From positions 1,664,001 to 1,728,000 of the forward strand of contig OZ241863.1 of the NCBI GenBank assembly GCA_965203055.1: 64,000 nt of DNA, written 5' to 3'. Of the stretch, positions 49,897 through 63,042 are shown one piece after another. A program made the translations under genes and the position numbers. The stretch comes from Spirochaetia bacterium (lineage in GTDB: Bacteria > Spirochaetota > Spirochaetia > SZUA-6 > Bin103). The notes below the pieces were generated by a model that saw only the letters and a program-made list of their open reading frames with translations, made no database searches and was not told where the DNA came from. The stretch's first letter is position 1; the number at the start of each line of letters is the position of its first letter.

Positions 49897-51102
49897 TCAC
49901 GACCGCGCGATCGACGCTACTCGTGCCAGAAATTGGTCGCCGGCGCCGGACTGCACCAGCCAGTCGCCGACGTCGGCCAGTTGATCCGCTTCCCCGATGT
50001 CCGCCATCAGAGCCGCCGCACGCTCGGCGGTTTCCGCGCCGAACCGCAACGCTGCCATACGGCGCAACAGCGTTCGTTCGTGTTCAAGTCCCTGCTCGCG
50101 GCCCTGCTCGCGGCCCTGCTCGCGGCCCTGCTCGCGGCCCTGCTCGCGGCCCTGCTCGCGGCCTTGTTCGCGGCCCTGCTCAAGACCTTCCTCGCGGCCC
50201 TGCTCGCGGCCTTGCGCAAGTCCTTGCTCAAGACCTTCTTCGCGGCCTTGCGCAAGTCCCTGCGCAAGGCCTTGCTCGCGGCCTTCCCGCATCCACTGCG
50301 CCGGCCACTCCTTCACTCGATCTTCCAGCGTCATCCGTACCTCCTCCAGGTTCTTCATCTCCGGCAGCTTCTCCCCCTTCCGCTTGATCCGCTCCATCGA
50401 ACTCCGCAGCCAGTCCTCGAACACCCGTCGCAACTCCTCGTGCTCCGACCCCGCCAGCCACTCCGCCAGCGCGTTCGCTACCCGCAACAAGTCCTCCGGC
50501 GACCGACTCTGCTCCAGCCCCACCACCGCACGCATCAGATTCCCGCGCGGCACCGAGTCCGCCCCCACCCGCTGCTCGTCCACTACAAAATATCGCTGCG
50601 CCGGTTGGTACGCCGCCAGCCACTGCCCCACCGGCGCGATCAACTCGCCCACCTCCTGCGGCGCCCCCCACGGGTCCGTGCCGTTGTAGAGCACTACCGG
50701 CAGCACCGCCGGCAAGCGGCGCGCTTCCTGCCCTTCTCGCCCGTCCTGTCCGTCCCGCCTCCTCCGACTCTCGTTGCGCAACCACTCCTGGTACATCAGG
50801 CTGACGTAGACCAGGATGCGCAGCGCCATGTAGTAGTCATCGCGCGACTGGAACTCCAGCAGCACCAGCAGATAGGCCCACTCGTCTCCCACCCGCAGCC
50901 GCCATACCGCGTCCCCGTGGCGCTTCAGCAACTCGTCGCTGACGTACTCCGCCGACAGCTTCTGCAGCGTCGAGAAGTCAACGGTAGCGAGCTGCTCGCC
51001 GCTGAAGAAGGCGCGCACGAGGTCTTCGACCATGCGCGGGAAGGCGAACAGCATCTTGTACCGCTCATCGTACCGGGGGCGGGACTCGCGTCCGGGGCTC
51101 AT
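49897..51102 (-). CDS. Rpn family PD-(D/E)XK nuclease/putative transposase (copy 1)
   Basis: [36 protein letters not shown], then GREQ repeats. Confidence 0.9.
50090..50285. repeat. 12-bp VNTR encoding [12 protein letters not shown] (shorter arrays at ~51502-51551 and ~52760-52895)
   Basis: (ccctgctcgcgg)n and variants. Confidence 0.9.
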
Positions 51103-51308
51103 TACCGCATCGTAGCAGTATGATCCGGCGAGCGGCAATCAAGAAGAGAAGACGCAGATGCTGGTTCTCATGACCGGCGCCAAGTGGCATCTCCTCGAAA
51201 TTCCTCTGAACGGGAGCGATACCGGAGCGGGCCGGGGACAGACTCCCGCCGTTACCGTACCGCGCAGGAGAGTTCGACCGGGGTGGCGCGGCACTTACGC
51301 GAGCGCCG

Positions 51309-52361
51309 TCACGACCGCGCGATCGACGCTACTCGTGCCAGAAATTGGTCGCCGGCGCCGGACTGCACCAGCCAGTCGCCGACGTCGGCCAGTTGATCCG
51401 CTTCCCCGATGTCCGCCATCAGAGCCGCCGCACGCTCGGCGGTTTCCGCGCCGAACCGCAACGCTGCCATACGGCGCAACAGCGTTCGTTCGTGTTCAAG
51501 TCCCTGCTCGCGGCCTTGCGCAAGTCCCTGCGCAAGGCCTTGCTCGCGGCCTTCCCGCATCCACTGCGCCGGCCACTCCTTCACTCGATCTTCCAGAGTC
51601 ATCCGTACCTCCTCCAGGTTCTTCATCTCCGGCAGCTTCTCCCCCTTCCGCTTGATCCGCTCCATCGAACTCCGCAGCCAGTCCTCGAACACCCGTCGCA
51701 ACTCCTCGTGCTCCGATCCCGCCAGCCACTCCGCCAGCGCGTTCGCTACCCGCAACAAGTCCTCCGGCGACCGACTCTGCTCCAGCCCCACCACCGCACG
51801 CATCAGATTCCCGCGCGGCACCGAGTCCGCCCCCACCCGCTGCTCGTCCACTACAAAATATCGCTGCGCCGGCTGGTACGCCGCCAGCCACTGCCCCACC
51901 GGCGCGATCAACTCGCCCACCTCCTGCGGCGCCCCCCACGGGTCCGTGCCGTTGTAGAGCACTACCGGCAGCACCGCCGGCAAGCGGCGCGCCTCCTGCC
52001 CGTCCTGTCCGTCCCGCCTCTTCCGACTCTCGTTGCGCAACCACTCCTGGTACATCAGGCTGACGTAGACCAGGATGCGCAGCGCCATGTAGTAGTCATC
52101 GCGCGACTGGAACTCCAGCAGCACCAGCAGATAGGCCCACTCGTCTCCCACCCGCAGCCGCCATACCGCGTCCCCGTGGCGCTTCAGCAACTCGTCGCTG
52201 ACGTACTCCGCCGACAGCTTCTGCAGCGTCGAGAAGTCAACGGTAGCGAGCTGCTCGCCGCTGAAGAAGGCGCGCACGAGGTCTTCGACCATGCGCGGGA
52301 AGGCGAACAGCATCTTGTACCGCTCGTCGTACCGGGGGCGGGACTCGCGTCCGGGGCTCAT
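51309..52361 (-). CDS. Rpn family nuclease (copy 2, shortest repeat tract)
   Basis: Near-identical to copy 1. Confidence 0.9.
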   Translation of the reverse strand: MSPGRESRPRYDERYKMLFAFPRMVEDLVRAFFSGEQLATVDFSTLQKLSAEYVSDELLKRHGDAVWRLRVGDEWAYLLVLLEFQSRDDYYMALRILVYVSLMYQEWLRNESRKRRDGQDGQEARRLPAVLPVVLYNGTDPWGAPQEVGELIAPVGQWLAAYQPAQRYFVVDEQRVGADSVPRGNLMRAVVGLEQSRSPEDLLRVANALAEWLAGSEHEELRRVFEDWLRSSMERIKRKGEKLPEMKNLEEVRMTLEDRVKEWPAQWMREGREQGLAQGLAQGREQGLEHERTLLRRMAALRFGAETAERAAALMADIGEADQLADVGDWLVQSGAGDQFLARVASIARS

Positions 52362-52566
52362 TACCGCATCGTAGCAGTATGATCCGGCGAGCGGCAATCA
52401 AGAAGAGAAGACGCAGATGCTGGTTCTCATGACCGGCGCCAAGTGGCATCTCCTCGAAATTCCTCTGAACGGGAGCGATACCGGAGGGGACGAGGTCAGG
52501 CTCCCGCCGTTACCGTACCGCGCAGGAGAGTTCGACCGGGGTGGCGCGGCAGGTACGCGAGCGCCG

Positions 52567-53703
52567 TCACGACCGCGCGATCGACGCTACTCGTGCCAGA
52601 AATTGGTCGCCGGCGCCGGACTGCACCAGCCAGTCGCCGATGTCGGCCAGTTGATCCGCTTCCCCGATGTCCGCCATCAGAGCCGCCGCACGCTCGCCGG
52701 TTTCCGCGCCGAACCGCAGCGCTGCCATACGGCGCAACAGCGTTCGCTCGTGTTCAAGTCCCTGCTCGCGGCCTTGCTCGCGGCCTTGTTCGCGGCCCTG
52801 CTCAAGACCTTGCTCGCGGCCTTGCGCAAGTCCTTGCTCAAGACCTTCTTCGCGGCCCTGCGCAAGTCCCTGCGCAAGGCCTTGCTCGCGGCCTTCCCGC
52901 ATCCACTGCGCCGGCCACTCCTTCACTCGATCTTCCAGCGTCATCCGTACCTCCTCCAGGTTCTTCATCTCCGGCAGCTTCTCCCCCTTCCGCTTGATCC
53001 GCTCCATCGAACTCCGCAGCCAGTCCTCGAACACCCGTCGCAACTCCTCGTGCTCCGACCCCGCCAGCCACTCCGCCAGCGCGTTCGCTACCCGCAACAA
53101 GTCCTCCGGCGACTGACTCTGCTCCAGCCCCACCACCGCCCGCATCAGATTCCCGCGCGGCACCGAGTCCGCCCCCACCCGCTGCTCGTCCACTACGAAG
53201 TAGCGCTGCGCCGGCTGGTAGGCCGCCAACCACTGCCCCACCGGCGCGATCAACTCGCCCACCTCCTGCGGCGCGCCCCACGGGTCCGTGCCGTTGTAGA
53301 GCACTACGGGCAGCACCGCCGGCAAGCGGCGCGCCTCCTGCCCTTCCTGTCCGTCCCGCCTCTTCCGACTCTCGTTGCGCAACCACTCCTGGTACATCAG
53401 GCTGACGTAGACCAGGATGCGCAGCGCCATGTAGTAGTCATCGCGCGACTGGAACTCCAGCAGCACCAGCAGATAGGCCCACTCGTCTCCCACCCGCAGC
53501 CGCCATACGGCGTCCCCGTGGCGCTTCAGCAACTCGTCGCTGACGTACTCTGCCGACAGCTTCTGCAGCGTCGAGAAGTCAACGGTAGCGAGCTGCTCGC
53601 CGCCGAAGAAGGCGCGCACGAGGTCTTCGACCATGCGCGGGAAGGCGAACAGCATCTTGTACCGCTCGTCGTAGCGGGGGCGGGACTCGCGTCCGGGGCT
53701 CAT
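52567..53703 (-). CDS. Rpn family nuclease (copy 3)
   Basis: Near-identical to copy 1, with several substitutions (FFGGE, QSQSP, TGER, DIGD). Confidence 0.9.
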   Translation of the reverse strand: MSPGRESRPRYDERYKMLFAFPRMVEDLVRAFFGGEQLATVDFSTLQKLSAEYVSDELLKRHGDAVWRLRVGDEWAYLLVLLEFQSRDDYYMALRILVYVSLMYQEWLRNESRKRRDGQEGQEARRLPAVLPVVLYNGTDPWGAPQEVGELIAPVGQWLAAYQPAQRYFVVDEQRVGADSVPRGNLMRAVVGLEQSQSPEDLLRVANALAEWLAGSEHEELRRVFEDWLRSSMERIKRKGEKLPEMKNLEEVRMTLEDRVKEWPAQWMREGREQGLAQGLAQGREEGLEQGLAQGREQGLEQGREQGREQGREQGLEHERTLLRRMAALRFGAETGERAAALMADIGEADQLADIGDWLVQSGAGDQFLARVASIARS

Positions 53704-53739
53704 TACCGCATCGTAGCAGTATGATCCGACGAGCGGCAA

Positions 53740-55827
53740 TCAAGAGAAGACGCGCAACGCTTTGAAGTTCCGGCGAATCTTGGCCGCCAGCGTCACCGAT
53801 TCGGCGTCGAGGTCGTCGAGCTCCGCGTGGATGTTCCGCAGCGTCTGCGCGAAGTCGAAGTCCTCTTCCTCGTCGTCGGGCGCGATGCCGACGTAGCGGC
53901 CGGGGGTGAGGCTCCAGTCGTTGGCCGCGATCTCGGCGCGGTCCACCAGCTTGACCAGCCCCGCCACGTCGCGCAGCTCGGCGTCGGGGAAGCGCTCGGC
54001 GAGCCACTGCGCTTGCCGCCACAGGTAGCGCACGCGCTCCAGCCGCGCCACTGCGTTCCGGCGCGCCTCGTCCGCTGCTCTGCGGGCGCGGGTCACGGCG
54101 CGGTTGTTCCAGGCGGCGCTCGATCCGGCGTCGCGCCGCTGCTCGCAGGTCTCGATCAGCCGGGTGGCGAGGGAATGGAGGCGGTCCGCCTGCCGCGCCA
54201 AGCCGCCGGCCGCGGCGGCCAACGGGGCAAGGCGGTCGACCGGCTGCCGGACCGCCGCTTGGGCCGGCGGCTCGCAGTTTCGCATCCGGTCTGCTGCGGC
54301 CGCCGCGGTCCCGAAAGCGTCCACCTCGCGCTCGAAGGCGGCGCGCGCCGCGTCCAGTTCGCCAAGCGGACCGGTTGGGCTGCGGTCCGCGCCAAGGGTC
54401 CGCAGAACGGGCGCCAGCGCGGCCTGCAGCTCCTCCAGCGCGCCGAGGAAGTCGGCGGCCGCGCCCCGGCAGGCGGCCCCTGCGCGCACCGCGCGGCGGC
54501 AATAATCGGCGACCAGGTCCCGGAACCGATCGGTCTGCTCCCGGTAGAGATGGACGATGGCGAGCAGGTTCCGCATCTGCTCCGGGCTGAAGTCGTAGAT
54601 CTTGCGGGTCACCTTGCGGAAGATGGCGCGCGCGTCGATCATCAGCACCTTGCCGCGGCGGCGCTCCGGCTTGGCGCGGTTCAGGAACCACAGCTCGCAC
54701 GGCACGGTCCGGGTGTAGAAGAAGTTGGAGCGGATGGCGATCATGACCTCCACGTCGCCGGTCTCCACCAGCTTGCGGCGCACCGCGGCTTCGGCGCCGC
54801 CGGCGCTCGATGCCTGCGACGACATCACGAAGCCGGCCCTGCCGTTCCGGTTCAGGTAGCTGTGGAAGTAGCTGATCCAGACGTAGTTGCCGTTGCTGAC
54901 GCGCGCCCGCCGGTTGACGCCGGGCAGGCCGAACGGCAGGCGCGGATCGGCCTTGACCTTCTCGGCGTCGATTTCGTCCACGTTGAACGGCGGATTGGCC
55001 ATCACGTAGTCGGCCTTGCCCACCAGCTCGTGCGGGTCCTCGTAATAGGTGATCGCCTGCCGTATGTCCCCCTCCAGGCCGTGGACCGCGAGGTTCATCC
55101 GCGCCAGGCGGATGGTGGCGGCGTTCTTCTCCAGCCCGCGGAAGGTGAGCCGCTCGGTCGGGCTGCGGCCCTGTTCCCGCACCGTGCGCGCGCTCTGGAC
55201 GAACATGCCGCCGGAGCCGCAGGCGGGATCGAGGACGGCGCCGCGCTCGGGATCGAGCACGTGGGCGATCAGCGAGACCAGTGAGGAGGGCGTGAAGAAC
55301 TCGCCGCCGTCATGCGCCTTCTGATCGGCGAACTGGGTGAGGAAGTACTCGTAGATGCGCCCGAAGACATCGCCCGATACCCGCTTCAGCTCGTCGGGGT
55401 CGAGGGTGCGCAGGAGCTGGCCGAGGACCTCGTTATCCAGCTCGTGATACTCGCTCTTCGGCAACATGCCGCGCAGGCTCTCGTAGTCGGCTTCGATCGA
55501 CTCCATGGCGGCGATGATCGCCGCGGCGCGGTCGAGGCCGTCGGGCAGCGCGACCAGGTGGTCGAACCGCGCCTGTGGGCGCAGGAAGATGGCGTCCCGC
55601 TGCGAGAAGTCCTGCTTGGCAAGCGGCCGCGCCCGGCCGCCGCGGGTGGGCCGGCCGGCGGCGGCTTCCTCCGCCACCGCCAGGTAGCGGCGGTAGGCGT
55701 GGCGCAGGAAGACCAAGCCCATCACCGGCAGGAAGTATTCGTTGCTGGCGTAGTTGGAGTTGGCGCGCAGCGTGTCGGCCGCGCTCCAGAGGCGCCGCTC
55801 GATGGCGTCGACGTATTCGAGCTGCAT
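53740..55827 (-). CDS. hsdM: Type I R-M methyltransferase subunit
   Basis: LWSAADTLR, GEFFTP, DPACGSGGM, ANPPFN and WSLTPGRYVG motifs. Confidence 0.95.
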   Translation of the reverse strand: MQLEYVDAIERRLWSAADTLRANSNYASNEYFLPVMGLVFLRHAYRRYLAVAEEAAAGRPTRGGRARPLAKQDFSQRDAIFLRPQARFDHLVALPDGLDRAAAIIAAMESIEADYESLRGMLPKSEYHELDNEVLGQLLRTLDPDELKRVSGDVFGRIYEYFLTQFADQKAHDGGEFFTPSSLVSLIAHVLDPERGAVLDPACGSGGMFVQSARTVREQGRSPTERLTFRGLEKNAATIRLARMNLAVHGLEGDIRQAITYYEDPHELVGKADYVMANPPFNVDEIDAEKVKADPRLPFGLPGVNRRARVSNGNYVWISYFHSYLNRNGRAGFVMSSQASSAGGAEAAVRRKLVETGDVEVMIAIRSNFFYTRTVPCELWFLNRAKPERRRGKVLMIDARAIFRKVTRKIYDFSPEQMRNLLAIVHLYREQTDRFRDLVADYCRRAVRAGAACRGAAADFLGALEELQAALAPVLRTLGADRSPTGPLGELDAARAAFEREVDAFGTAAAAADRMRNCEPPAQAAVRQPVDRLAPLAAAAGGLARQADRLHSLATRLIETCEQRRDAGSSAAWNNRAVTRARRAADEARRNAVARLERVRYLWRQAQWLAERFPDAELRDVAGLVKLVDRAEIAANDWSLTPGRYVGIAPDDEEEDFDFAQTLRNIHAELDDLDAESVTLAAKIRRNFKALRVFS

Positions 55828-55930
55828 GTCGTGCGCAACGACCGCTGCGGTCCGGGCGCGATGCGGGCGCCGGCCCCCGCGCCGGCGCCCGGCCCTTCGA
55901 CCCGGATCTACCGGAGGTCGATTCCGCGGC

Positions 55931-57247
55931 TCAGACGCCCGCCGGCGGGGCGGCGGTCGCGATTCCCTGCTCGACCAGCAGCTTGAGGAAGTCGTCGGCC
56001 AGGTCGGCCGCGGCCCCCTCGGGCAACGCCTCCCGGAACGCGCCGGCGCGCACCGGCGCGCCGCGCAGCAGGGTAGCCAGCAGCTCCATGCAGCGGCCGT
56101 CGAACGTCCAGCGGTAGCCGTTCGCCTGCAGCACCGCTTCGCCGCCGGCGCCCCGTTCCAGCGCCGCGTGCCGGGCGCCGCGCAGCCGGATCTCGCAGCG
56201 TTCCCAGTCGGGGGACTTCCACGGATCGAGATAGGGGCCGAGGCCCGGGCGCGACCGTTCCGACCAGGTAGCGCGCATGTGGTCGTCGAATCCCCGTTTC
56301 AGGTCTCCGTCCAGTTCCCTGAGGAGCAGCTCCCGGAGCGCCGCGTAGTGGGCGCCGCCGGAGCGGTCCGTCGGGTGGGGAAGATCGCGGCGGAAGGTCT
56401 CGTGGCGGGCGAGCCGGCCGGAAAGCCATTCCATGAATTCGATACCGGTGACCGCGTTGATGCTGCAGGTGAGGTGCACGCTGCCGGCGCCGTCGGAACC
56501 GTCGTCAGCCTCGGCGCGGGCGTCGTGCCACCAGCCGCGCGGGAGGTAGAGGACGTCGCCGGCCCTGAGCATCCCGTTCCACACCGGCTCGCCGGGCGGC
56601 GTCGCGGGCGGTTCCGCATCCCGCGTCAGCGGAAAGCGCCGCGTTTCGCCGTAGATCTGCCAGCGCTTGGTGCCGGCCACCTGCAAGATGAACACGTCGT
56701 GGTCGTCCCAGTGGGTTGCAAAGCCGGGGGAGGCCATCCACGACGCGTAGAGGTTGATCATCGCGTAGCCGCCCAGGGACTCCTCGATCGCGTCGGCCAC
56801 GGCACGAATCGGAGGATGGAGCTCGTGGATGCCGGGCAGGACGACGGAGGCGCCCTGGCGGAGCATCGCCTGCAGTCGCCGGCCATCGAGCACGCTCGAA
56901 TTCGCCGGTGAGGCGCCCATTCTCCAGCCGAGACCGAACATCGGCCTGGTGTAGGCGATGGAGGGGACGTTCCTGCCCTCCTTGACCAATTTCATCCGGA
57001 CGTACCAGGCGTCCGAGCACAGCAGTTCGTTGAGCTGCTCCCAGGAGCACAGGGACGCGAACCGAGGCGCCTCCGCCCGAAACAGGACCGGGCGCTTCTC
57101 CCGGTAGCGGGTATCGAGGAACTCCTGCGTGGTCAGCGGCCGGACGAGGCCGGCGAACTCGGCCGGATCGTGGCGCTCCGCGCCGGCGGGGAGCACCTCG
57201 ACCGCCGCGGCGGCCGCTGGCGGAACGCGCTCGCCGCGTTCACTCAT
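55931..57247 (-). CDS. JmjC/Cupin_4 2-oxoglutarate/Fe(II) oxygenase
   Basis: GFATHWDDHDVFILQVAGTKRW...LYLPRGWWH (HxD...H triad), SVHLT. Confidence 0.9.
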   Translation of the reverse strand: MSERGERVPPAAAAAVEVLPAGAERHDPAEFAGLVRPLTTQEFLDTRYREKRPVLFRAEAPRFASLCSWEQLNELLCSDAWYVRMKLVKEGRNVPSIAYTRPMFGLGWRMGASPANSSVLDGRRLQAMLRQGASVVLPGIHELHPPIRAVADAIEESLGGYAMINLYASWMASPGFATHWDDHDVFILQVAGTKRWQIYGETRRFPLTRDAEPPATPPGEPVWNGMLRAGDVLYLPRGWWHDARAEADDGSDGAGSVHLTCSINAVTGIEFMEWLSGRLARHETFRRDLPHPTDRSGGAHYAALRELLLRELDGDLKRGFDDHMRATWSERSRPGLGPYLDPWKSPDWERCEIRLRGARHAALERGAGGEAVLQANGYRWTFDGRCMELLATLLRGAPVRAGAFREALPEGAAADLADDFLKLLVEQGIATAAPPAGV

Positions 57248-57458
57248 CGCGTTCCCCTTCGGCGCGCGCGGCCGGCGCGCGGTCCGGTTGCTTCGCCGCG
57301 GTGTCGGGTATGATTTCGATGCTGATGTGCGGAACCGCGCCGCCGGAACTGGCGGCAGGCCGGATCCTGCTCAGGTAGTCGGCCTCCTGCTTGAAGGCAT
57401 AGTGGAAGGCCAGGCACACCACCGGCGCCTCGCCGTGCAAAAGCTTACGAGCGTCCAT
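57240..57458 (-). CDS. Small hypothetical protein (72 aa)
   Basis: TATACT 10 nt before ATG; 8-nt overlap with the JmjC gene, whose SD lies in its 3' end. Confidence 0.4.
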   Translation of the reverse strand: MDARKLLHGEAPVVCLAFHYAFKQEADYLSRIRPAASSGGAVPHISIEIIPDTAAKQPDRAPAARAEGERDE

Positions 57459-57651
57459 GACGCAGGGTAGTATACCGAACCGGGCCGAGGTCCGCATGCG
57501 CCGCCACACGCACCACACGCACCACGGCGATGCCGGATAATCCAACTTGATGGCCGTTCGCTTGACCCGCGGCCAACGATAGCCCAATACTCTGATCGAC
57601 GGCGCCTGCCGCCGAGCGCAGGCGCAGAGACTCGACGAGGAGGTGGAAGTC

Positions 57652-58014
57652 GTGGATACCGGACCCAAGACGATGGGTGAACTTCGCGAGCACTTGATCG
57701 AGAAGGCGACCATCGATGAGAAGTTCCGCGCGCAGTTCATCGCGGATCCAAAGGCTGCCATCAAGGAGGAGTTGGGGGTGGCGCTGCCCGACGGCTACAC
57801 CATCGAGGTGCATGAGGACGCCGCCGACGTCAGCCACATGGTGCTGCCGCCGCCGGCGGCGCTCGCCGAGTCGGAGCTGGCGGCGGCGGCCGGCGGGTCC
57901 GTCAAAGCATGGAATGCCGTAGATCGCACCTATGTCAGCATCGACAACGTGATCTCCTTCTGGGACGACTACGGCGGCACGACCTATCACGGCGGCCCGA
58001 GGCACAACGCCTGA
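57652..58014 (+). CDS. NHLP-leader RiPP precursor 1
   Basis: SD GAGGAGG then GTG; LIEKATIDEKFRAQFIADPKAAI...VHED...VLPP...LAESELAAAAGG; core SVKAWNAVDRTYVSIDNVISFWDDYGGTTYHGGPRHNA. Confidence 0.9.
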   Translation: MDTGPKTMGELREHLIEKATIDEKFRAQFIADPKAAIKEELGVALPDGYTIEVHEDAADVSHMVLPPPAALAESELAAAAGGSVKAWNAVDRTYVSIDNVISFWDDYGGTTYHGGPRHNA

Positions 58015-58027
58015 CTGACGGGCGGGG

Positions 58028-59164
58028 ATGGTTCCCCGCCCGCCGGCAGCGGCGGGTAATCGAGCAGTGCCGTTGTCAGACCGCCAGTACCCAATACCCG
58101 CCGGCGCCAGCTTTGCCGCGGTCCTCGCCGGATGCCGCTCCCTGTTTCCGCCCGCGCTGCTCGGCGCGGCCGGTTGGGAGCGCCTCCTGGAGCAGGCGCG
58201 GCGGCTGCCCCGTTGCGTGGCAGACCATCACTTCGGCTTCGAGTTCCGTCTCGGCGAGTCGAGCCCGGCCGCCGACCTCGGCGTAGTCGTGCTCCCGGCA
58301 TCGGAGCTGGCGCGTCACTACGTCCGCGAGGGGGCGCGCGCCGAACCGGGGTCGCCGGCCGCCGCGCTCGCGGCCGGGCTGCGGGAACAGACCGAGAATC
58401 CCGATTCGTACCTTGCCCGCGGCGTGGCCGGGATGGTGTTGGAATACGATCTGGCCAAGGTCGAACCGGACCGTCCGCCGCCGGCCCCCGGGATATTCTT
58501 CACCCCGCGGCACTCGGCCCCGGGGGCGCGGCCGGAGTTTCATGAACATGGCGATCCCGCCGGCCTGCTTGCGGCGCTTGCCGTGACCGCCGGCTGGAGC
58601 AGTTACGAAGATGAGGTCCCGCGCGTCGAGCGCATCCTGGAGTCGCTGCCGGACAGCGGCTATCTGCTACAGGCGGGAGCCCTCCCGGGGCGCTCTCCGA
58701 AGGCGTTTCGGCTGGTCATCAAGGGCGTGGCGAAAGACGCGATTCCCGCGCTGCTGGAGCGTATCGAGTGGCCCGGCCCGACAGCCGAGGCGGCGGACGT
58801 GCTCGCCGCGCTGGACGACCTGGTCGCCTACGCCGCGGTCAGCCTCGACGTGACCCCGCGCGGCGTGGGCCCGCGGCTCGGTCTGGAACTATACCGCCCG
58901 CCGAAGTGGTTCGCGGTCGATCGCACCGGGTGGCACCCCTTCATCGCCCGAATCGAGGAGCGCGGCTGGTGCTTGCCGGCCAAGGCTGACGGACTGCGAA
59001 GCTGGCCCGGCGCCGAACGGCTGCTCGCCGACCGGGAGGTGCGCGCCGTTCGCCGGGGCATCAACCACGTGAAGGTCGTCATAGCCCCGGATACCCCGAC
59101 GGCGGCGAAAGCATACGCCGGCATGGACGTCCATCCGTACGGATCAACGCCGGCGCTACGATAA
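58028..59164 (+). CDS. Hypothetical enzyme, possibly an ABBA-barrel prenyltransferase-like RiPP maturase; start uncertain (GTG 58067 possible)
   Basis: Directly after precursor 1; motifs FGFEFRL, VLEYD, PGIFF, GPRLGLE, INHVKV, AKAY. Confidence 0.6.
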   Translation: MVPRPPAAAGNRAVPLSDRQYPIPAGASFAAVLAGCRSLFPPALLGAAGWERLLEQARRLPRCVADHHFGFEFRLGESSPAADLGVVVLPASELARHYVREGARAEPGSPAAALAAGLREQTENPDSYLARGVAGMVLEYDLAKVEPDRPPPAPGIFFTPRHSAPGARPEFHEHGDPAGLLAALAVTAGWSSYEDEVPRVERILESLPDSGYLLQAGALPGRSPKAFRLVIKGVAKDAIPALLERIEWPGPTAEAADVLAALDDLVAYAAVSLDVTPRGVGPRLGLELYRPPKWFAVDRTGWHPFIARIEERGWCLPAKADGLRSWPGAERLLADREVRAVRRGINHVKVVIAPDTPTAAKAYAGMDVHPYGSTPALR

Positions 59165-59223
59165 CGCCGCGCCGGCGAAGCGCTTCCCGATCAGGAGCCC
59201 CGGTGCTGTTGTTTACCCATGCA

Positions 59224-59257
59224 CAGCCGCAGGGATCGGAAATCGTCCCTGCGGCTG
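59224..59257. terminator. Hairpin between the convergent maturase gene and precursor 2
   Basis: cagccgcaggga...tccctgcggctg, 12-bp stem. Confidence 0.6.
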
Positions 59258-59275
59258 CAACGGAACGTCAGCCGG

Positions 59276-59635
59276 TCAGTCGGCGTTATGCCGCGGGCCG
59301 CCGTGATAGGTCGGGCCGCCGACGTCGTCCCAGAAGGTAAACAGATTGTCGGTGCCCACGTAGTTGCTGCCATTCCACCGGTAGATGGCCCCGCCGGACG
59401 CGGTCTCCAGCTCCGACTCGGCGAGCGACGCCGGCGGCGCCAGTACCAGGTTGGCGGTGTCCGGCGAGTCCTCATGCACCTTGATGGTGAAGTTCGGGGG
59501 GACCGCCATCTCCAACTCGTCCTTGATGGCAGTCTTCGGATCGGAGATCAGCTGAGCCCGAAACTCCGGGTCGGACGTAGCCTTCTCCACCAAGCGCGAC
59601 CGCATTTCCCGAACGGTCAGGGTTGCTTCGCTCAT
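59276..59635 (-). CDS. NHLP-leader RiPP precursor 2
   Basis: SD GGAGGGAAGG; LVEKATSDPEFRAQLISDPK...LAESELETASGG; core AIYRWNGSNYVGTDNLFTFWDDVGGPTYHGGPRHNAD. Confidence 0.92.
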   Translation of the reverse strand: MSEATLTVREMRSRLVEKATSDPEFRAQLISDPKTAIKDELEMAVPPNFTIKVHEDSPDTANLVLAPPASLAESELETASGGAIYRWNGSNYVGTDNLFTFWDDVGGPTYHGGPRHNAD

Positions 59636-59920
59636 TACCTTCCCTCCATAAGTAAGTGTTCAAATGGAGAGTATCGGCTACCGGCGACAGGTGTCAACCG
59701 AGACGTACCTGACCTGGCGCAGAAAATCACTTATCCGGTATTTCAGTGGCCGCTCGCCCACCGGCCCGCGCCCCCCGGCGGGCCGCCGGCCGGTTTCCCG
59801 GTGCCCTTCCGGACCGCCCTTGGTATTCCCTATCGAATTACCTGTAAATCAATTACGCGGTAATCGTCGAGGTCCCGCCAGCCCTGCTGCGCACGTCAAC
59901 CCCTCCCGCAGCCAGCCAGT

Positions 59921-59956
59921 CTCAGGCAGTCCGGCGGTGGCGGGTGGCGCCGTCGG
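59921..59956. repeat. ~35-bp imperfect direct repeat (second copy 61440-61473)
   Basis: ctcaggcagtccggcggtggcgggtggcgccgtcgg vs ctcaggcatgccgggtggcgggtggcgccgtcgg. Confidence 0.75.
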
Positions 59957-59991
59957 GGATCGAGATCGTCCCCGCGGCTGCGGAACGCCGG

Positions 59992-60324
59992 TCAGTCAGC
60001 GTTATGCTGCGGGCCGCCGATATAGGTCGGACCGCCGACATCGTCCCAGAAGGTAAACGCCTCGTCGATGCCCGCGTTGCCATATGCGGCATTCCACTTG
60101 TAGACGGCCCCGCCGGACGCGGTCTCCAGATCCGACTCGGCGAGCGACGCCGGCGGCGCCAGTACCAGGTTGGCGGTGTTCCGCGAGTCCTCATGCACCT
60201 TGATGGTGAAGTTCGGGGGGATCGCCATCTCCAACTCGTCCTTGATGGCAGCCTTCGGATCGGAGATCAGCTAAGCCCGAAACTCCGGGTCGGACGTAGC
60301 CTTCTCCACCAGGCGCGACCGCAT
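59992..60324 (-). pseudogene. NHLP-leader RiPP precursor 3, 5'-truncated with an in-frame amber codon
   Basis: Nearly identical leader to precursor 2, but TAG at 60271-60273 replaces CAG; homology stops at ~60327; core AVYKWNAAYGNAGIDEAFTFWDDVGGPTYIGGPQHNAD. Confidence 0.88.
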
Positions 60325-60396
60325 TTCGGGCGCAGCCGGCTGCGCGCACGGCTTCGGGCAGCGCCCGGCAGCGCCGATCTCTTCGGGTGTGTGTCG

Positions 60397-61365
60397 TCAG
60401 GTCCCGTCGCCGCCCGCCGCGGCCGCGCCGTTGGGTTGGCTCCTGAGCTTCTGATACTCCTGCTCGCCAATCCCGGTCGCCCGCTCGATCAACGACCAGT
60501 CGACGCCGACCCGCAGGAATCCATCGATTATCTCCAACCGGCCCTCGCGGTGCCGCTGTTCGGCAACCGCTCGCATCTCGTCGCGCCCTTCCTGGCGCAG
60601 CCGCTCGCCGCTCGTCATCAACTCCCCTCCTGCCGCCGTGCGGCTCAGTATATCGCCCATCGCCTCGGGCGTGTCTTCAGGTCCCGTCTCCGCGATATAG
60701 TGCATGAACATCTTCATGTCGTCCTGACCGCCGCTTCCTTCCCGCTCCAAGTCGTCCAGCAGCGGCCGCATCCGCGCCCGTGCCTCCCGCACCGCGCGGC
60801 TGAAGGCGTGCATCATCGTCAGCTGCAGCAACCGCGCCCGGACGCTGCCGGCCGCCTGCGCCGGCGACACCTGCGTCTGATCGAACAGCACGTGCTCGAA
60901 CCGGGGCAGCCATGGCCAGTCCCGCGTTGCGGCCGGGAACAGGTCAGCGAACTGCGGGGAGTGCTGCCAGCCGGTGGGACCCTGGTAGAAGACCAGCGGC
61001 AGGATCGGGCGCAGATAGCCGGCATCCTGGTGGTCCCGGCGGTCGTGCTCCCAGATGCGGCAGCAGTAGGCCAGCAGGCGCAGGCGCAGCCAGTAGTCCG
61101 GGGTGGACTGATGCTCGAACAGCAGGTAGAGCCAGAGCGGAGCCTGCGCGGCGCCGGGTGCGGCGTAACCGATCTCGAACAGCAGGTCGGACGCGGTGCC
61201 GCGGAGGTCCGGGGCAACGAAGGAAGCGGGGAGCTGCTTGAGCGTGGGCCAGCGCAGGGCGCGGCTGAGCCGCGCGGGCAGCCTGGCTTGCAGGAATGAC
61301 GCGGCGTCCGCCGGGGCGCCGAACACGCGCTTGAACAGATGGTCGTGGGGCTGATGGATAGCCAT
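60397..61365 (-). CDS. Rpn family nuclease/putative transposase (Transposase_31 type), divergent from copies 1-3
   Basis: PHDHLFKRVF, SDLLF, LFEHQS, LRLRLLAY, PLVFYQG, LIERATGI. Confidence 0.92.
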   Translation of the reverse strand: MAIHQPHDHLFKRVFGAPADAASFLQARLPARLSRALRWPTLKQLPASFVAPDLRGTASDLLFEIGYAAPGAAQAPLWLYLLFEHQSTPDYWLRLRLLAYCCRIWEHDRRDHQDAGYLRPILPLVFYQGPTGWQHSPQFADLFPAATRDWPWLPRFEHVLFDQTQVSPAQAAGSVRARLLQLTMMHAFSRAVREARARMRPLLDDLEREGSGGQDDMKMFMHYIAETGPEDTPEAMGDILSRTAAGGELMTSGERLRQEGRDEMRAVAEQRHREGRLEIIDGFLRVGVDWSLIERATGIGEQEYQKLRSQPNGAAAAGGDGT

Positions 61366-61602
61366 GCCCCATATAACGGGCCGGCCGTCTGTGGCGCTTT
61401 TGCCCGGCGACGCCAACCCTGCGAGCATGGGGGATCGTCCTCAGGCATGCCGGGTGGCGGGTGGCGCCGTCGGCCCGCCGCCCCGTGCGCGCCGGCGGGC
61501 GGCCTCAGCCCTTCCCTGCCTGCGCTCGGCGGCAGCATGCGCGCCGCAATTCTGCTATGGTAGCTTCCGGCACGTATCGTTAGCGCTAAGAGAGAGGGAG
61601 TC

Positions 61603-63042
61603 ATGCCGTCCATCGCAGTCAGAAACTTCGGTCCGATCGCGCACGCCGAGGTCGATCTGAAACCGCTTACCGTGCTGATCGGCTCCAACAACACCGGAAA
61701 ATCATACCTCGCTCTGGCAGTATACTCCCTGTTTCAGGCCGTCTTGAGGATTCGCGACCATAAATATCGGCCGACAAGATCGCGAAGAACTCTGAAACCA
61801 TTGTACGAGCATGAAAATTCGGTTCAACGCCTGGTGAGCGCGGGAGGTGACTGGAGCCGTATCAAGCCGGATGTCGTCAACGTCATCTCAGGGGCATCCC
61901 GGTTCCGCAATCTGCCAGCAGAGATCAAGGAATCTCTTCGAAAGGAATCGAAACTATGGGCCAGGGTGTACTCCGATTACATGGCGTACGAGTTGCAGCG
62001 CAGTTCTGGTTTCAACATGAGTCAACTTGAAAGAAAAGATCACCGGATAGAGCACGGAGGACTTGAAATAAAGGTGTGTGACAAGTCAACCGGACTATCC
62101 TGGAACATGCGTTGTATTGGAGACAATCTAACGGTCGATAGATGGGAACCAAACACATCGATTATGTCAGAAAGTGACGATCGACCATCGCTCATTTCGT
62201 CAAGTCACGATCTAGACCAAGAACGTGACTTGGTCGACTTGTTGACGACGTGGTATCCGGCATTCCTGCTACGAGGTTATTCAACTCCATCGCATTATCT
62301 ACCGGCCGGCAGGTCGGCCATCCTGCAAAGACACAAGACGCTGGCGGGTCTGATCGTCGGACAGGCATCCACCGCGTGGATCGAGTCGAAGCAGGTCGAT
62401 CAGATGCCCGGTGTCATCGCGGATTTCGTTCGGGCGTTGCTCTTCCTTACACGTACAGAACTTCGATCCGGAAAGATAAAGAACACCGTAGAGTTCCTGG
62501 AATCGAATGTCCTCGCGGGGTCGGTGGACCTCGAACGGCAATATGAATACGCGGATCTGCAATACCGGAGCGATGTGGGAGAGTTCAACTTGCACCAAGT
62601 ATCGTCCATGGTGTCCGAAATAGCCCCGCTGGTGCTATACCTGAAGTATCTGGTAAGACTGAATCATCTATGCATCATCGAGGAGCCGGAGTCGCACCTG
62701 GACCCGGCCAATCAGCGCCTCCTTGCCCGAGCCATCGCGATGTTGGTAAACGCCGGCGTACGAATTCTAGTGACGACTCATAGCGACATTTTTCTGAACC
62801 AGATCAACAACTTGATGCAGATTTCCAGTCTTGCACCAAGAAAACGTCTGAGGATGGGTTACAAGGCTGCCGAAGTGCTGACCCCAAGTGACGTATCAGC
62901 ATACGTGTTCAGACCCGGCGACCGCGGCACTCACGTAACTCCGCTTTCGGTCGATGGCGATTACGGTATCTCTACCGAGTCGTTCGACGCAGTTCACCGC
63001 GCCCTCTACGACGAAGCCGTCAAGATGGAGCATGACGGATAG
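61603..63042 (+). CDS. AAA/ABC-like ATPase (AAA_15/AAA_21 type), lower GC
   Basis: NFGPI, GSNNTGKSY, SSMVSEIAP, IIEEPESHL, VTTHSD. Confidence 0.9.
   Translation: MPSIAVRNFGPIAHAEVDLKPLTVLIGSNNTGKSYLALAVYSLFQAVLRIRDHKYRPTRSRRTLKPLYEHENSVQRLVSAGGDWSRIKPDVVNVISGASRFRNLPAEIKESLRKESKLWARVYSDYMAYELQRSSGFNMSQLERKDHRIEHGGLEIKVCDKSTGLSWNMRCIGDNLTVDRWEPNTSIMSESDDRPSLISSSHDLDQERDLVDLLTTWYPAFLLRGYSTPSHYLPAGRSAILQRHKTLAGLIVGQASTAWIESKQVDQMPGVIADFVRALLFLTRTELRSGKIKNTVEFLESNVLAGSVDLERQYEYADLQYRSDVGEFNLHQVSSMVSEIAPLVLYLKYLVRLNHLCIIEEPESHLDPANQRLLARAIAMLVNAGVRILVTTHSDIFLNQINNLMQISSLAPRKRLRMGYKAAEVLTPSDVSAYVFRPGDRGTHVTPLSVDGDYGISTESFDAVHRALYDEAVKMEHDG

Follow-up and report, generated by a model that had tools for sequence, protein, structure and literature searches.

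A compact locus for RiPPs (peptides made on the ribosome and modified after translation) was analysed at positions 55931-60324 of a 64,000-nucleotide stretch of contig OZ241863.1 from a Spirochaetia bacterium; the whole of this stretch is referred to as the window. Five reading frames are described: three for peptide precursors with nitrile-hydratase-like leader peptides (NHLP), one for a JmjC oxygenase, and one for a 378-aa protein taken for an orphan in a sequence-only reading of the same DNA. Judged by its predicted fold, the 378-aa protein is very probably an alpha-beta-beta-alpha (ABBA, or PT-barrel) prenyltransferase, the missing key enzyme of the locus. The gene content, the leader family, the fold, the intact metal site of the JmjC enzyme, the conserved synteny and an exporter in trans are observed here. 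We assign a probability of roughly 0.68 to the overall mechanism, in which leader-guided prenylation of Trp and hydroxylation would be followed by cleavage at Gly-Gly and export of linear lipidated peptides.

Predicted fold of the 378-aa protein

No family of Pfam or NCBIfam is matched by the 378-aa protein, and in terms of sequence family it falls outside Pfam Trp_DMAT, Pfam PTase_Orf2 and the NCBIfam models. The label of an orphan is correct as far as annotation goes, but the relatives of the protein are plentiful. A word-indexed search returned at least 189 homologues at E<=1e-3; most of the 120 listed share 53-98% identity, and all 120 are without a name or a Pfam domain. A profile of 56 homologues reached 2,830 cluster representatives at E<=1e-3, 1,691 at E<=1e-10 and 223 at E<=1e-30, and among 41 cluster members a single one is named, as “hypothetical protein”. 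Language-model leads for the protein were the Trp_DMAT cluster (0.90) and PTase_Orf2 (0.88).

The AlphaFold2 model, computed from the alignment of 56 sequences (pLDDT 88.6, pTM 0.86), consists of five alpha-alpha-beta-beta repeats that form the ten-stranded barrel of ABBA/PT-barrel enzymes. Comparison of this model with the PDB by Foldseek gave 66 matches at E<=1e-3, and each match listed is an aromatic prenyltransferase. A structural search independent of Foldseek (VIA), run over 48,161 representative PDB chains, returned 19 chains with Z>=8, all of them PT-barrel prenyltransferases with Z from 17.7 to 11.2, the next chain standing at 6.2. The top match is MpnD (Z 17.6-17.7, root-mean-square deviation 4.1, 292 aligned residues), followed by auraA and CymD (both 16.7), CdpNPT (16.5), FgaPT2 (16.4), NphB-type enzymes (13.8), CloQ (13.5), and the cyanobactin F-family members PatF (12.4), PagF (12.2) and DciF (11.2). 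Because its Z values are 15-17.7 against the DMATS-type indole prenyltransferases and 11.2-12.4 against the cyanobactin F family, the modelled protein is structurally nearer to the former.

Residues invariant in the 56 homologues include E72, D83, Y140, R222, R228, R283, K349, K361 and Y363, all of which lie on predicted strands except R222, located between two strands. The Arg, Lys and Tyr residues of this set would be of the type that cages the diphosphate in the PT-barrel fold. An isoprenoid-synthase fold like that of PalQ was also considered for the 378-aa protein and rejected: SQS_PSY was reached at E 0.038, short of the cut-off, in one of the 56 members, and the fold is an ABBA barrel.

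NHLP precursors and their cores

Precursors 1 and 2 both exceed the cut-off of 50.9 bits of TIGR03793, the NCBIfam model of the NHLP leader, in agreement with the earlier view that this is a RiPP locus with NHLP leaders and a small core library (Table 1). Since TIGR03793 is silent in all 14 control genomes (0/14 with a match), these leader matches are not due to chance. In precursor 1 the leader (57643-57897) terminates in ...LAESELAAAAGG and is followed by a core of 38 aa (57898-58011) with an F-W-D-D motif at 57958-57969; in precursor 2 the leader (59635-59390) is followed by a core of 37 aa (59389-59279) with the same motif at 59335-59324. In double-glycine leaders the pattern is L(-12), E(-8), L(-7), G(-2), G(-1). 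Both precursors have Leu(-12), Glu(-8) and Leu(-7) ahead of the Gly-Gly that closes the leader, and the leader end LAESELAAAAGG fits this pattern.

As had been read from the sequence before, the leaders end in GG and the three cores (38, 37 and 38 aa) are free of Cys and rich in Trp, Tyr, Phe, Asp and Asn; this holds for both intact cores. In an alignment of 17 FWDD-type precursors no core residue other than F106, W107 and D108 is invariant, although D109 comes close, and the Trp of the window cores is placed internally, not at the C-terminus. The window cores end in GGPRHNA, a tail that we take to resemble the Gly-rich His/Arg sites in the substrates of ribosomal oxygenases, which is a lead only. 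A promoter scan of positions 55800-60500 found two sites, where 0.4 were expected from shuffles: TTGACC-18-AATACT 5' of precursor 1 (9/12 positions) and TTGACA-16-GATACT 5' of precursor 2 (10/12 positions).

The sequence-only reading had counted three paralogous precursors. Two of them are intact, but the third is probably not a functional copy, being truncated at its 5' end, interrupted by an in-frame TAG and scored at 47.3 bits, under the TIGR03793 cut-off. Its translation runs ...EFRA*LISDPK..., where the TAG at 60273-60271 replaces a CAG (Gln) codon of precursor 2. In the DNA alignment of the two copies homology starts at GAAATGCGG, codons 10-11, and precursor 3 therefore has neither the promoter-like site nor the GGAGG stretch (ribosome-binding site) nor the first codons of precursor 2; the promoter stretch at 59670-59697 has no counterpart 5' of precursor 3. 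The leader DNA of the two copies is nearly identical and their cores have diverged, a pattern that is the usual one in precursor diversification. Precursor 3 is probably a truncated pseudogene copy.

Conserved neighbourhoods and core types

Relatives were scanned with one genome per species, and the 42 loci returned all belong to metagenome-assembled genomes, with the labels Spirochaetia, Gamma- and Alphaproteobacteria, Binatia, Vicinamibacterales, Dehalococcoidia/SAR202 and others. Merging of overlapping loci and addition of the two from the genome to which the window belongs gave 65 full-length prenyltransferase genes on 29 contigs. An NHLP precursor is found at <=500 bp from 57 of these 65 genes, at <=1,500 bp from 59, and directly upstream on the same strand of 46, while a JmjC homologue is located at <=6 kb from 38/65, all these counts being conditional on the prenyltransferase having been the search query. 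The co-occurrence of precursor, JmjC and 378-aa genes that the sequence-only reading had proposed to look for is thereby present, and so is its conserved JmjC partner.

Most of the listed cores near the prenyltransferase genes contain Trp. The FWDD-type cores (RGSGNDEAITFWDDF, RTAASSFWDD) adjoin prenyltransferases of the window's kind, the x-x-W cores (IDWGEVGWR, FSWDNVGW) adjoin the clade of the second prenyltransferase of the genome, and arrays of Trp-ending cores adjoin a clade about 42% identical. The exceptions are the cores of a distant clade, which end in Tyr-Tyr, and some short ones rich in Tyr or acidic residues. In a quick maximum-likelihood tree the window prenyltransferase groups with that of the closest related locus, L014 (SH-aLRT 99), and then with those of L006, L004 and L018, all of which have long FWDD-type cores. 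The core labels require 28 changes on this tree, compared with a shuffled mean of 38.3 and 0/200 shuffles as low; this clustering is descriptive only, related sequences sharing labels, and in that descriptive sense the prenyltransferase clades track core types.

These data bear on the possibility that the PT-barrel protein modifies the precursors in another way, at another residue (Tyr, an Asp carboxylate or a terminus) or by another alkylation or a cyclisation. ABBA enzymes vary in their acceptor. The function is inferred from the fold only, His, Arg and Tyr prenyltransferases occur among the structural matches, and the cores of the distant clade end in Tyr-Tyr and have no Trp. Against this stand the Trp common to the cores of the window's clade, with F-W-D invariant in 17/17 FWDD precursors; the nearest structures, which are indole prenyltransferases (Z 15-17.7) placed ahead of other acceptor types; and the terpene-cyclase-like genes that accompany the family. 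Such a different modification is considered unlikely, and prenylation of Trp is preferred. The distant clade itself (L043, L044 and L045, about 33% identity) has the Trp-less cores EADYY and NLYY, and Tyr may be prenylated there.

The prenyltransferase tree departs from the taxonomy labels, which suggests that the cassette was exchanged horizontally between lineages. Separately, L012 and L013 were observed to share the core IDWGEVGWR and closely related prenyltransferases in genomes labelled Binatia and Vicinamibacterales.

Two unusual precursor forms were recorded among the relatives. At L034:7139-7873 (+), with a counterpart in L035, an NHLP leader and a short Trp core are fused to an extension of about 150 aa starting CFRPDALVRLADG, for which a weak, sub-threshold match to Hint_2 (E 0.0088) was obtained; this fusion could be a self-cleaving precursor. 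In L026, L031 and L033, all labelled Vicinamibacterales, the JmjC-adjacent precursors contain two Cys residues in a repeated C-T-R-D, for example ITCRRKSIWTEERVCTRDVADYNNSWGGSNW, in contrast to the Cys-free cores elsewhere.

The JmjC enzyme

The 438-aa protein matches Pfam JmjC_2 (PF08007) at 9.5e-26, with 90.2 bits against a cut-off of 22. Its sequence matches in the PDB are NO66 (2.4e-16), MINA53 (4.6e-15), YcfD (2e-6) and YxbC (2e-5), together with the bacterial cupin-4 protein 4csw (3.7e-8 over residues 142-402). Alignment to NO66 locates the HxD...H iron triad and the 2-oxoglutarate-binding Lys in the window protein, and H179, D181, H241, K194, N165 and Y167 are invariant in 20/20 homologues. 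By sequence, the enzyme is assigned to the Fe(II)/2-oxoglutarate hydroxylases of the ribosomal-oxygenase (ROX) type, and it looks active because the metal-site residues and K194 are invariant.

The 20 distinct JmjC genes near prenyltransferases are 59-89% identical and come from metagenome-assembled genomes of five lineage labels. The gene accompanies prenyltransferase and NHLP genes in 19 of the 42 related loci and often directly adjoins a precursor, and this adjacency, together with the 59-89% identity across different phylum labels, argues that the precursors are its substrates. The precursors adjacent to JmjC genes have little in common apart from a Trp that precedes Asp, Asn or Thr (FWDD, TWDD, DWDN, TWDP, IWTE).

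The nearest solved relatives of the enzyme are the ribosomal oxygenases NO66, MINA53 and YcfD, and JmjC_2 is present as a single copy in the genome, as might suit the cell's own ribosomal-protein hydroxylase, an analogue of YcfD or RoxA that merely neighbours the RiPP genes. This explanation is nonetheless quite improbable. The recurrence of the gene with prenyltransferase and NHLP genes under Spirochaetia, Gamma- and Alphaproteobacteria, Binatia and Vicinamibacterales labels, at the identity given above, fits a gene of the cassette and not a housekeeping one, and the frequent position directly beside a precursor speaks in the same direction. Moreover, JmjC enzymes acting on RiPPs are documented, CzlI and BipG being described as hydroxylases of RiPP precursors in PMC11575548 and PMC12707348.

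Partners elsewhere in the genome

The genome (G000) contains 12 NHLP matches, 11 of which are above the TIGR03793 cut-off. Besides those of the window there are two further FWDD-type precursors, at G000:951590 and 2482893, and several x-x-W precursors. A second prenyltransferase, 60% identical to that of the window, directly follows a precursor with the core FSWDNVGW. NHLP genes are scattered over G000:C1, for example at 2117734, 2118367, 2066809, 4216664, 4217053, 2482893 and 951590, and no enzyme genes adjoin them. Two kinds of core occur among these precursors, FWDD and x-x-W (for instance IDWS.. and MGWSFQW). This scattering of NHLP genes without adjacent enzymes suggests that two prenyltransferase paralogues serve a dispersed precursor library in trans. 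One of the twelve, at 1335971, covers no more than positions 3-63 of the model and seems degenerate.

One complete NHLM export set is present at G000:951882-957028, about 765 kb from the window and beside the FWDD precursor at 951590. It comprises TIGR03797 (951882-953936; 729.8 bits, cut-off 709.4) and TIGR03796 (954887-957028; 905.2 bits, cut-off 853.3), the latter holding the only C39 domain of the genome (G000:956639-957022). A search of the genome for a C39 transporter, as proposed in the sequence-only reading, is in this way answered positively. The same transporter genes are found at <=6 kb of a prenyltransferase gene in 15/42 related loci.

A class II terpene-cyclase-like gene of about 320-350 aa lies within +-6 kb of the prenyltransferase in 10/42 related loci, with 62-80% identity; one of these neighbour copies carries an in-frame stop. 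The profile of this family reaches the monodomain squalene-hopene/tetraprenyl-curcumene cyclase 8paj (7.7e-5), squalene-hopene cyclase (3e-4) and MstE (0.04); Pfam SQHop_cyclase_C is matched below threshold (6.8e-4), and an Atlas search also leads to SQHop_cyclase_C. With the assignment made through profile and language model, these neighbours are an independent sign of isoprenoid chemistry. The single intact cyclase-like gene of the window's genome is L047:6472-7434 (+), equal to G000:C1:2925471-2926433, at 1.2 Mb from the window; it stands alone and is 75% identical to the prenyltransferase-linked copies. Comparison of the profiles of the prenyltransferase and cyclase-like families gave no relation, and no fused prenyltransferase-cyclase forms were found among proteins of 663-2000 aa, which is weak evidence. 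Two polyprenyl synthase genes are present, neither near a RiPP gene, and they are uninformative on the supply of the prenyl donor.

The search for other maturases bears on the sequence-only account, according to which the peptides are made by hydroxylation plus an unknown modification, no class-defining maturase is present and the maturing enzymes are possibly encoded elsewhere. Its observation that the window lacks radical-SAM, LanM, YcaO and C39 genes is supported: the genome has no match to YcaO and none to LanC-like domains (the control for the latter matched in no genome), and its eight Radical_SAM matches and single C39 all lie outside the window. The 378-aa protein is, in addition, without family annotation. 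The account as a whole is nevertheless very improbable, given that this protein has a definite enzyme fold and the tightest gene link to the precursors, and that none of the 12 NHLP genes has a radical-SAM gene within about 15 kb. The claim of a missing maturase is given up here, the unambiguous ABBA prenyltransferase fold marking the 378-aa protein as a conserved maturase, and so is the label “proteusin-type”, for which a radical-SAM gene was found neither in the window nor near any NHLP gene. The second modification, of a kind then left open, is attributed to the 378-aa gene, and the prenyl mass shifts listed in that account point the right way.

Proposed mechanism and its weighing

In the mechanism proposed, the 378-aa prenyltransferase would dock on the NHLP leader of a precursor and prenylate the indole of the invariant Trp, with a prenyl diphosphate as donor. 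The JmjC enzyme, whose gene is transcribed divergently, would hydroxylate the same peptides, most likely in or beside the Trp-Asp motif and alternatively at the His or Arg of the GGPRHNA tail. The distant NHLM pair of C39 peptidase and ABC transporter would then cut the leader after Gly-Gly and export the peptide. What we infer is the transfer of a prenyl group, its attachment at Trp, the position of the hydroxyl and the order in which the steps run.

Several points weigh against this mechanism. (i) The prenyltransferase function of the 378-aa protein is a call from fold and context, since no sequence-level link to known prenyltransferases was found, and a fold alone shows no function: prenyltransferase Pfam families were hit by 0/56 family members at E<=10 and by 0/37 sampled representatives at E<=0.01, and the profile of 56 homologues found nothing relevant among PDB sequences, the best matches (E 0.11 and 0.38) being to an unrelated protein. 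(ii) The predicted complex of the 378-aa protein with a precursor would support docking only weakly. Its score is 0.42, where the best of three controls reached 0.01; contact agreement between runs is >=43% and the pLDDT of the partner >=62. The mark applied to such scores is reached by 116/157 solved complexes and 2/215 mismatched pairs, and the range up to 0.60 holds 18 of the 157 solved complexes at the mark as well as both mismatched pairs at the mark. (iii) The target of the JmjC enzyme is not readable from the sequence, JmjC genes also stand beside cores without FWDD, and the solved relatives of the enzyme act on ribosomal proteins. (iv) The neighbourhood counts carry the search condition given with them. 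(v) The cluster is rearranged in comparison with L014, one precursor is dead, and the cyclase-like gene and the exporter are located elsewhere; with this rearrangement and the Rpn/YhgA-like flanks, activity of this particular copy is not assured.

State of this copy and its flanks

Compared at the DNA level with the closest relative, L014, the JmjC segment of the window is 92% identical and the segment with precursor 1 and the prenyltransferase 84%. A minus-strand precursor of L014 located between these two segments is absent from that place in the window; its homologue occurs downstream of the prenyltransferase as precursor 2, and again as precursor 3. All genes of the locus were found at the coordinates previously given for them and are collected in Table 1.

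Table 1. Genes and promoter-like sites of the locus (window coordinates)
Feature	Position	Strand	Length	Remarks
JmjC gene	55931-57247	-	438 aa	Pfam JmjC_2
Sigma-70-like promoter match	57562-57591	+		5' of precursor 1 and the prenyltransferase; consensus match only
Precursor 1	57643-58014	+	123 aa	TIGR03793 NHLP leader, 61.4 bits
378-aa “orphan” gene	58028-59164	+	378 aa	Predicted ABBA (PT-barrel) prenyltransferase fold; starts 13 nt 3' of precursor 1
Precursor 2	59276-59635	-	119 aa	TIGR03793, 52.1 bits
Sigma-70-like promoter match	59670-59697	-		5' of precursor 2; consensus match only
Precursor 3	59992-60324 (ATG 60324-60322, end 59992)	-		5'-truncated duplicate of precursor 2; probable pseudogene

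On one side of the locus there are three tandem Transposase_31 (YhgA/Rpn-like) paralogues of 413, 362 and 390 aa (49897-53739, minus strand), directly abutted by a gene for an HsdM-like N6-adenine methylase of 695 aa (53740-55827, minus strand). What chiefly distinguishes the three paralogues is how many (R)EQG(L/R) repeats they carry near the C-terminus. The other side has a fourth, divergent Transposase_31 copy (60397-61428, minus strand) and, following the RiPP locus, an AAA_15/AAA_21 ATPase of 479 aa (61603-63042, plus strand). A Transposase_31 stretch was also seen beside the L014 cluster (window 60980-61354 against L014 81-446, 73%).

Metagenome runs from several studies carry the stretch of the locus and show sequence variants in it, and contigs from four runs, aligned to the locus, covered it with sequence variants in 4/4. 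These alignments also contain many joints, whose sides are short (21-44 letters). The runs carrying the DNA of these uncultivated lineages are labelled as sponge or marine metagenomes, and the listed runs that carry the stretch include no RNA run.

These observations could be taken as signs that this copy of the cluster sits on a mobile island and is a remnant in decay that no longer works. Such a view draws on the truncation and nonsense codon of precursor 3, on the precursor that has moved from between the JmjC gene and precursor 1 of the closest relative, on the four Rpn/YhgA-like genes and the lone HsdM-like methylase at the flanks, on the distance to the exporter and the cyclase-like gene, and on the lack of an RNA run among those listed. 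It is given little credence here: the JmjC gene, the prenyltransferase gene and precursors 1 and 2 are open, full-length and retain every invariant residue, promoter-like sites precede both intact precursors, and the stretch recurs with variants in runs of several studies. The genome has also kept the 11 above-cut-off NHLP precursors, the second prenyltransferase and the complete NHLM exporter, as expected of a system operating in trans.

Meaning of the proposed prenyltransferase family

Prenylation gives ribosomal peptides the properties of lipopeptides and is sought for peptide engineering, and few families of peptide prenyltransferases have been characterised. The family of the 378-aa protein is large, with the 2,830 cluster representatives mentioned above, and yet annotation pipelines leave its members unnamed or as “hypothetical protein”. 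Because no Pfam or NCBIfam model recognises it, RiPP mining keyed on radical-SAM, LanM or YcaO enzymes would show only orphan precursors. Recognition of the family explains many “maturase-less” NHLP precursors and supplies leader-guided Trp-modifying enzymes together with natural libraries of substrates. The family is paired with a ROX-like JmjC enzyme, a type of protein hydroxylase undescribed with prenylated RiPPs in the searchable literature.

A further proposal, speculative and doubtful as a whole, would make the 378-aa protein a third, unannotated lineage of peptide prenyltransferases, derived from DMATS-like indole enzymes and leader-dependent on NHLP. Together with the JmjC enzyme it would define a new class of linear lipopeptide RiPPs in which a prenyl-Trp anchor stands directly before a hydroxylated Asp-Asp-x-Gly, a ribosomal counterpart of the calcium-dependent acidic lipopeptides, with a genome-wide library served in trans by two prenyltransferase paralogues and one exporter. 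The Asp-Asp-x-Gly stretch presumably resembles the Asp-x-Asp-Gly motif of those lipopeptides.

Comparison with known systems

The DMATS-type enzymes (MpnD, CymD, FgaPT2, IptA) are the closest solved structures, aligned over about 290-310 residues, but they act on free Trp or small indoles, their identity to the window protein in the structural alignments is 6-13%, and Pfam Trp_DMAT is not reached. The cyanobactin F family (PatF, PagF, DciF) resembles the window enzyme in consisting of peptide-modifying prenyltransferase barrels, though it is structurally further away, and its members are leader-independent and act after macrocyclisation, according to PMC12715784.

In PMC12715784 MppC is described as a leader-dependent ABBA prenyltransferase that geranylates Trp C5 of a Nif11-led lanthipeptide precursor, and bioRxiv 10.64898/2026.10.04.756588 places the hydroxylase MppG in the same mpp cluster of Moorena producens PAL. 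The MppE/MppC pair is similar to the system of the window in its soluble ABBA prenyltransferase, its long structured leader, the Trp indole in a short core and a peptide hydroxylase in the cluster. It differs in having a Nif11 leader and a core that is first macrocyclised by a lanthionine synthetase, whereas the window has NHLP leaders, Cys-free cores and an oxygenase of the ROX-type JmjC kind, and the search of the genome for LanC-like domains gave 0 matches (control silent). NctPC, as presented in the review PMC13290415, is an ABBA prenyltransferase fused to an MstE-like cyclase and geranylgeranylates Trp. Prenylation of Trp in a ribosomal peptide and the MstE-like cyclase are points in common with the relatives of the window locus, which carry an MstE/SHC-like gene near the prenyltransferase. 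In contrast to the fused NctPC, the genes are separate here, with the cyclase-like gene 1.2 Mb away and no fused forms among the proteins searched. The combination of a prenyltransferase barrel with precursors having long structured Nif11 or NHLP leaders, typical of MppC and NctPC, is present in the window.

PalQ of Paenibacillus alvei prenylates the C-terminal Trp of the NHLP precursor PalX and has an isoprenoid-synthase fold, as stated in PMC10853753. The PalX/PalQ system shares with the window a compact cluster, an NHLP-type precursor and a Trp prenylation enhanced by the leader, and other clades of the window's prenyltransferase family also have Trp-ending cores. The differences are that PalQ has a trans-IDS-like fold and needs a C-terminal Trp, while the window enzyme is predicted to be an ABBA barrel and the invariant Trp is internal. 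Unlike the proteusins, the window locus has no radical-SAM maturase.

With regard to hydroxylation, the window JmjC protein shares with NO66, MINA53, YcfD, CzlI and BipG the JmjC_2 core, the HxD...H triad and the Lys, but its context is an NHLP/prenyltransferase cassette and not ribosomal proteins, azole-containing peptides or biphenomycins. A literature search, which for the most part did not extend to subscription journals, found no description of an ABBA prenyltransferase and a JmjC enzyme together with an NHLP precursor, nor of an FWDD core. Trp prenylation and JmjC hydroxylation of RiPPs each have precedents, and the locus is a real, conserved system that is not maturase-less. What is new compared with the systems above is an unrecognised sequence family, NHLP leaders combined with linear, Cys-free FWDD cores, a JmjC partner of the ROX type, and an organisation dispersed over the genome.

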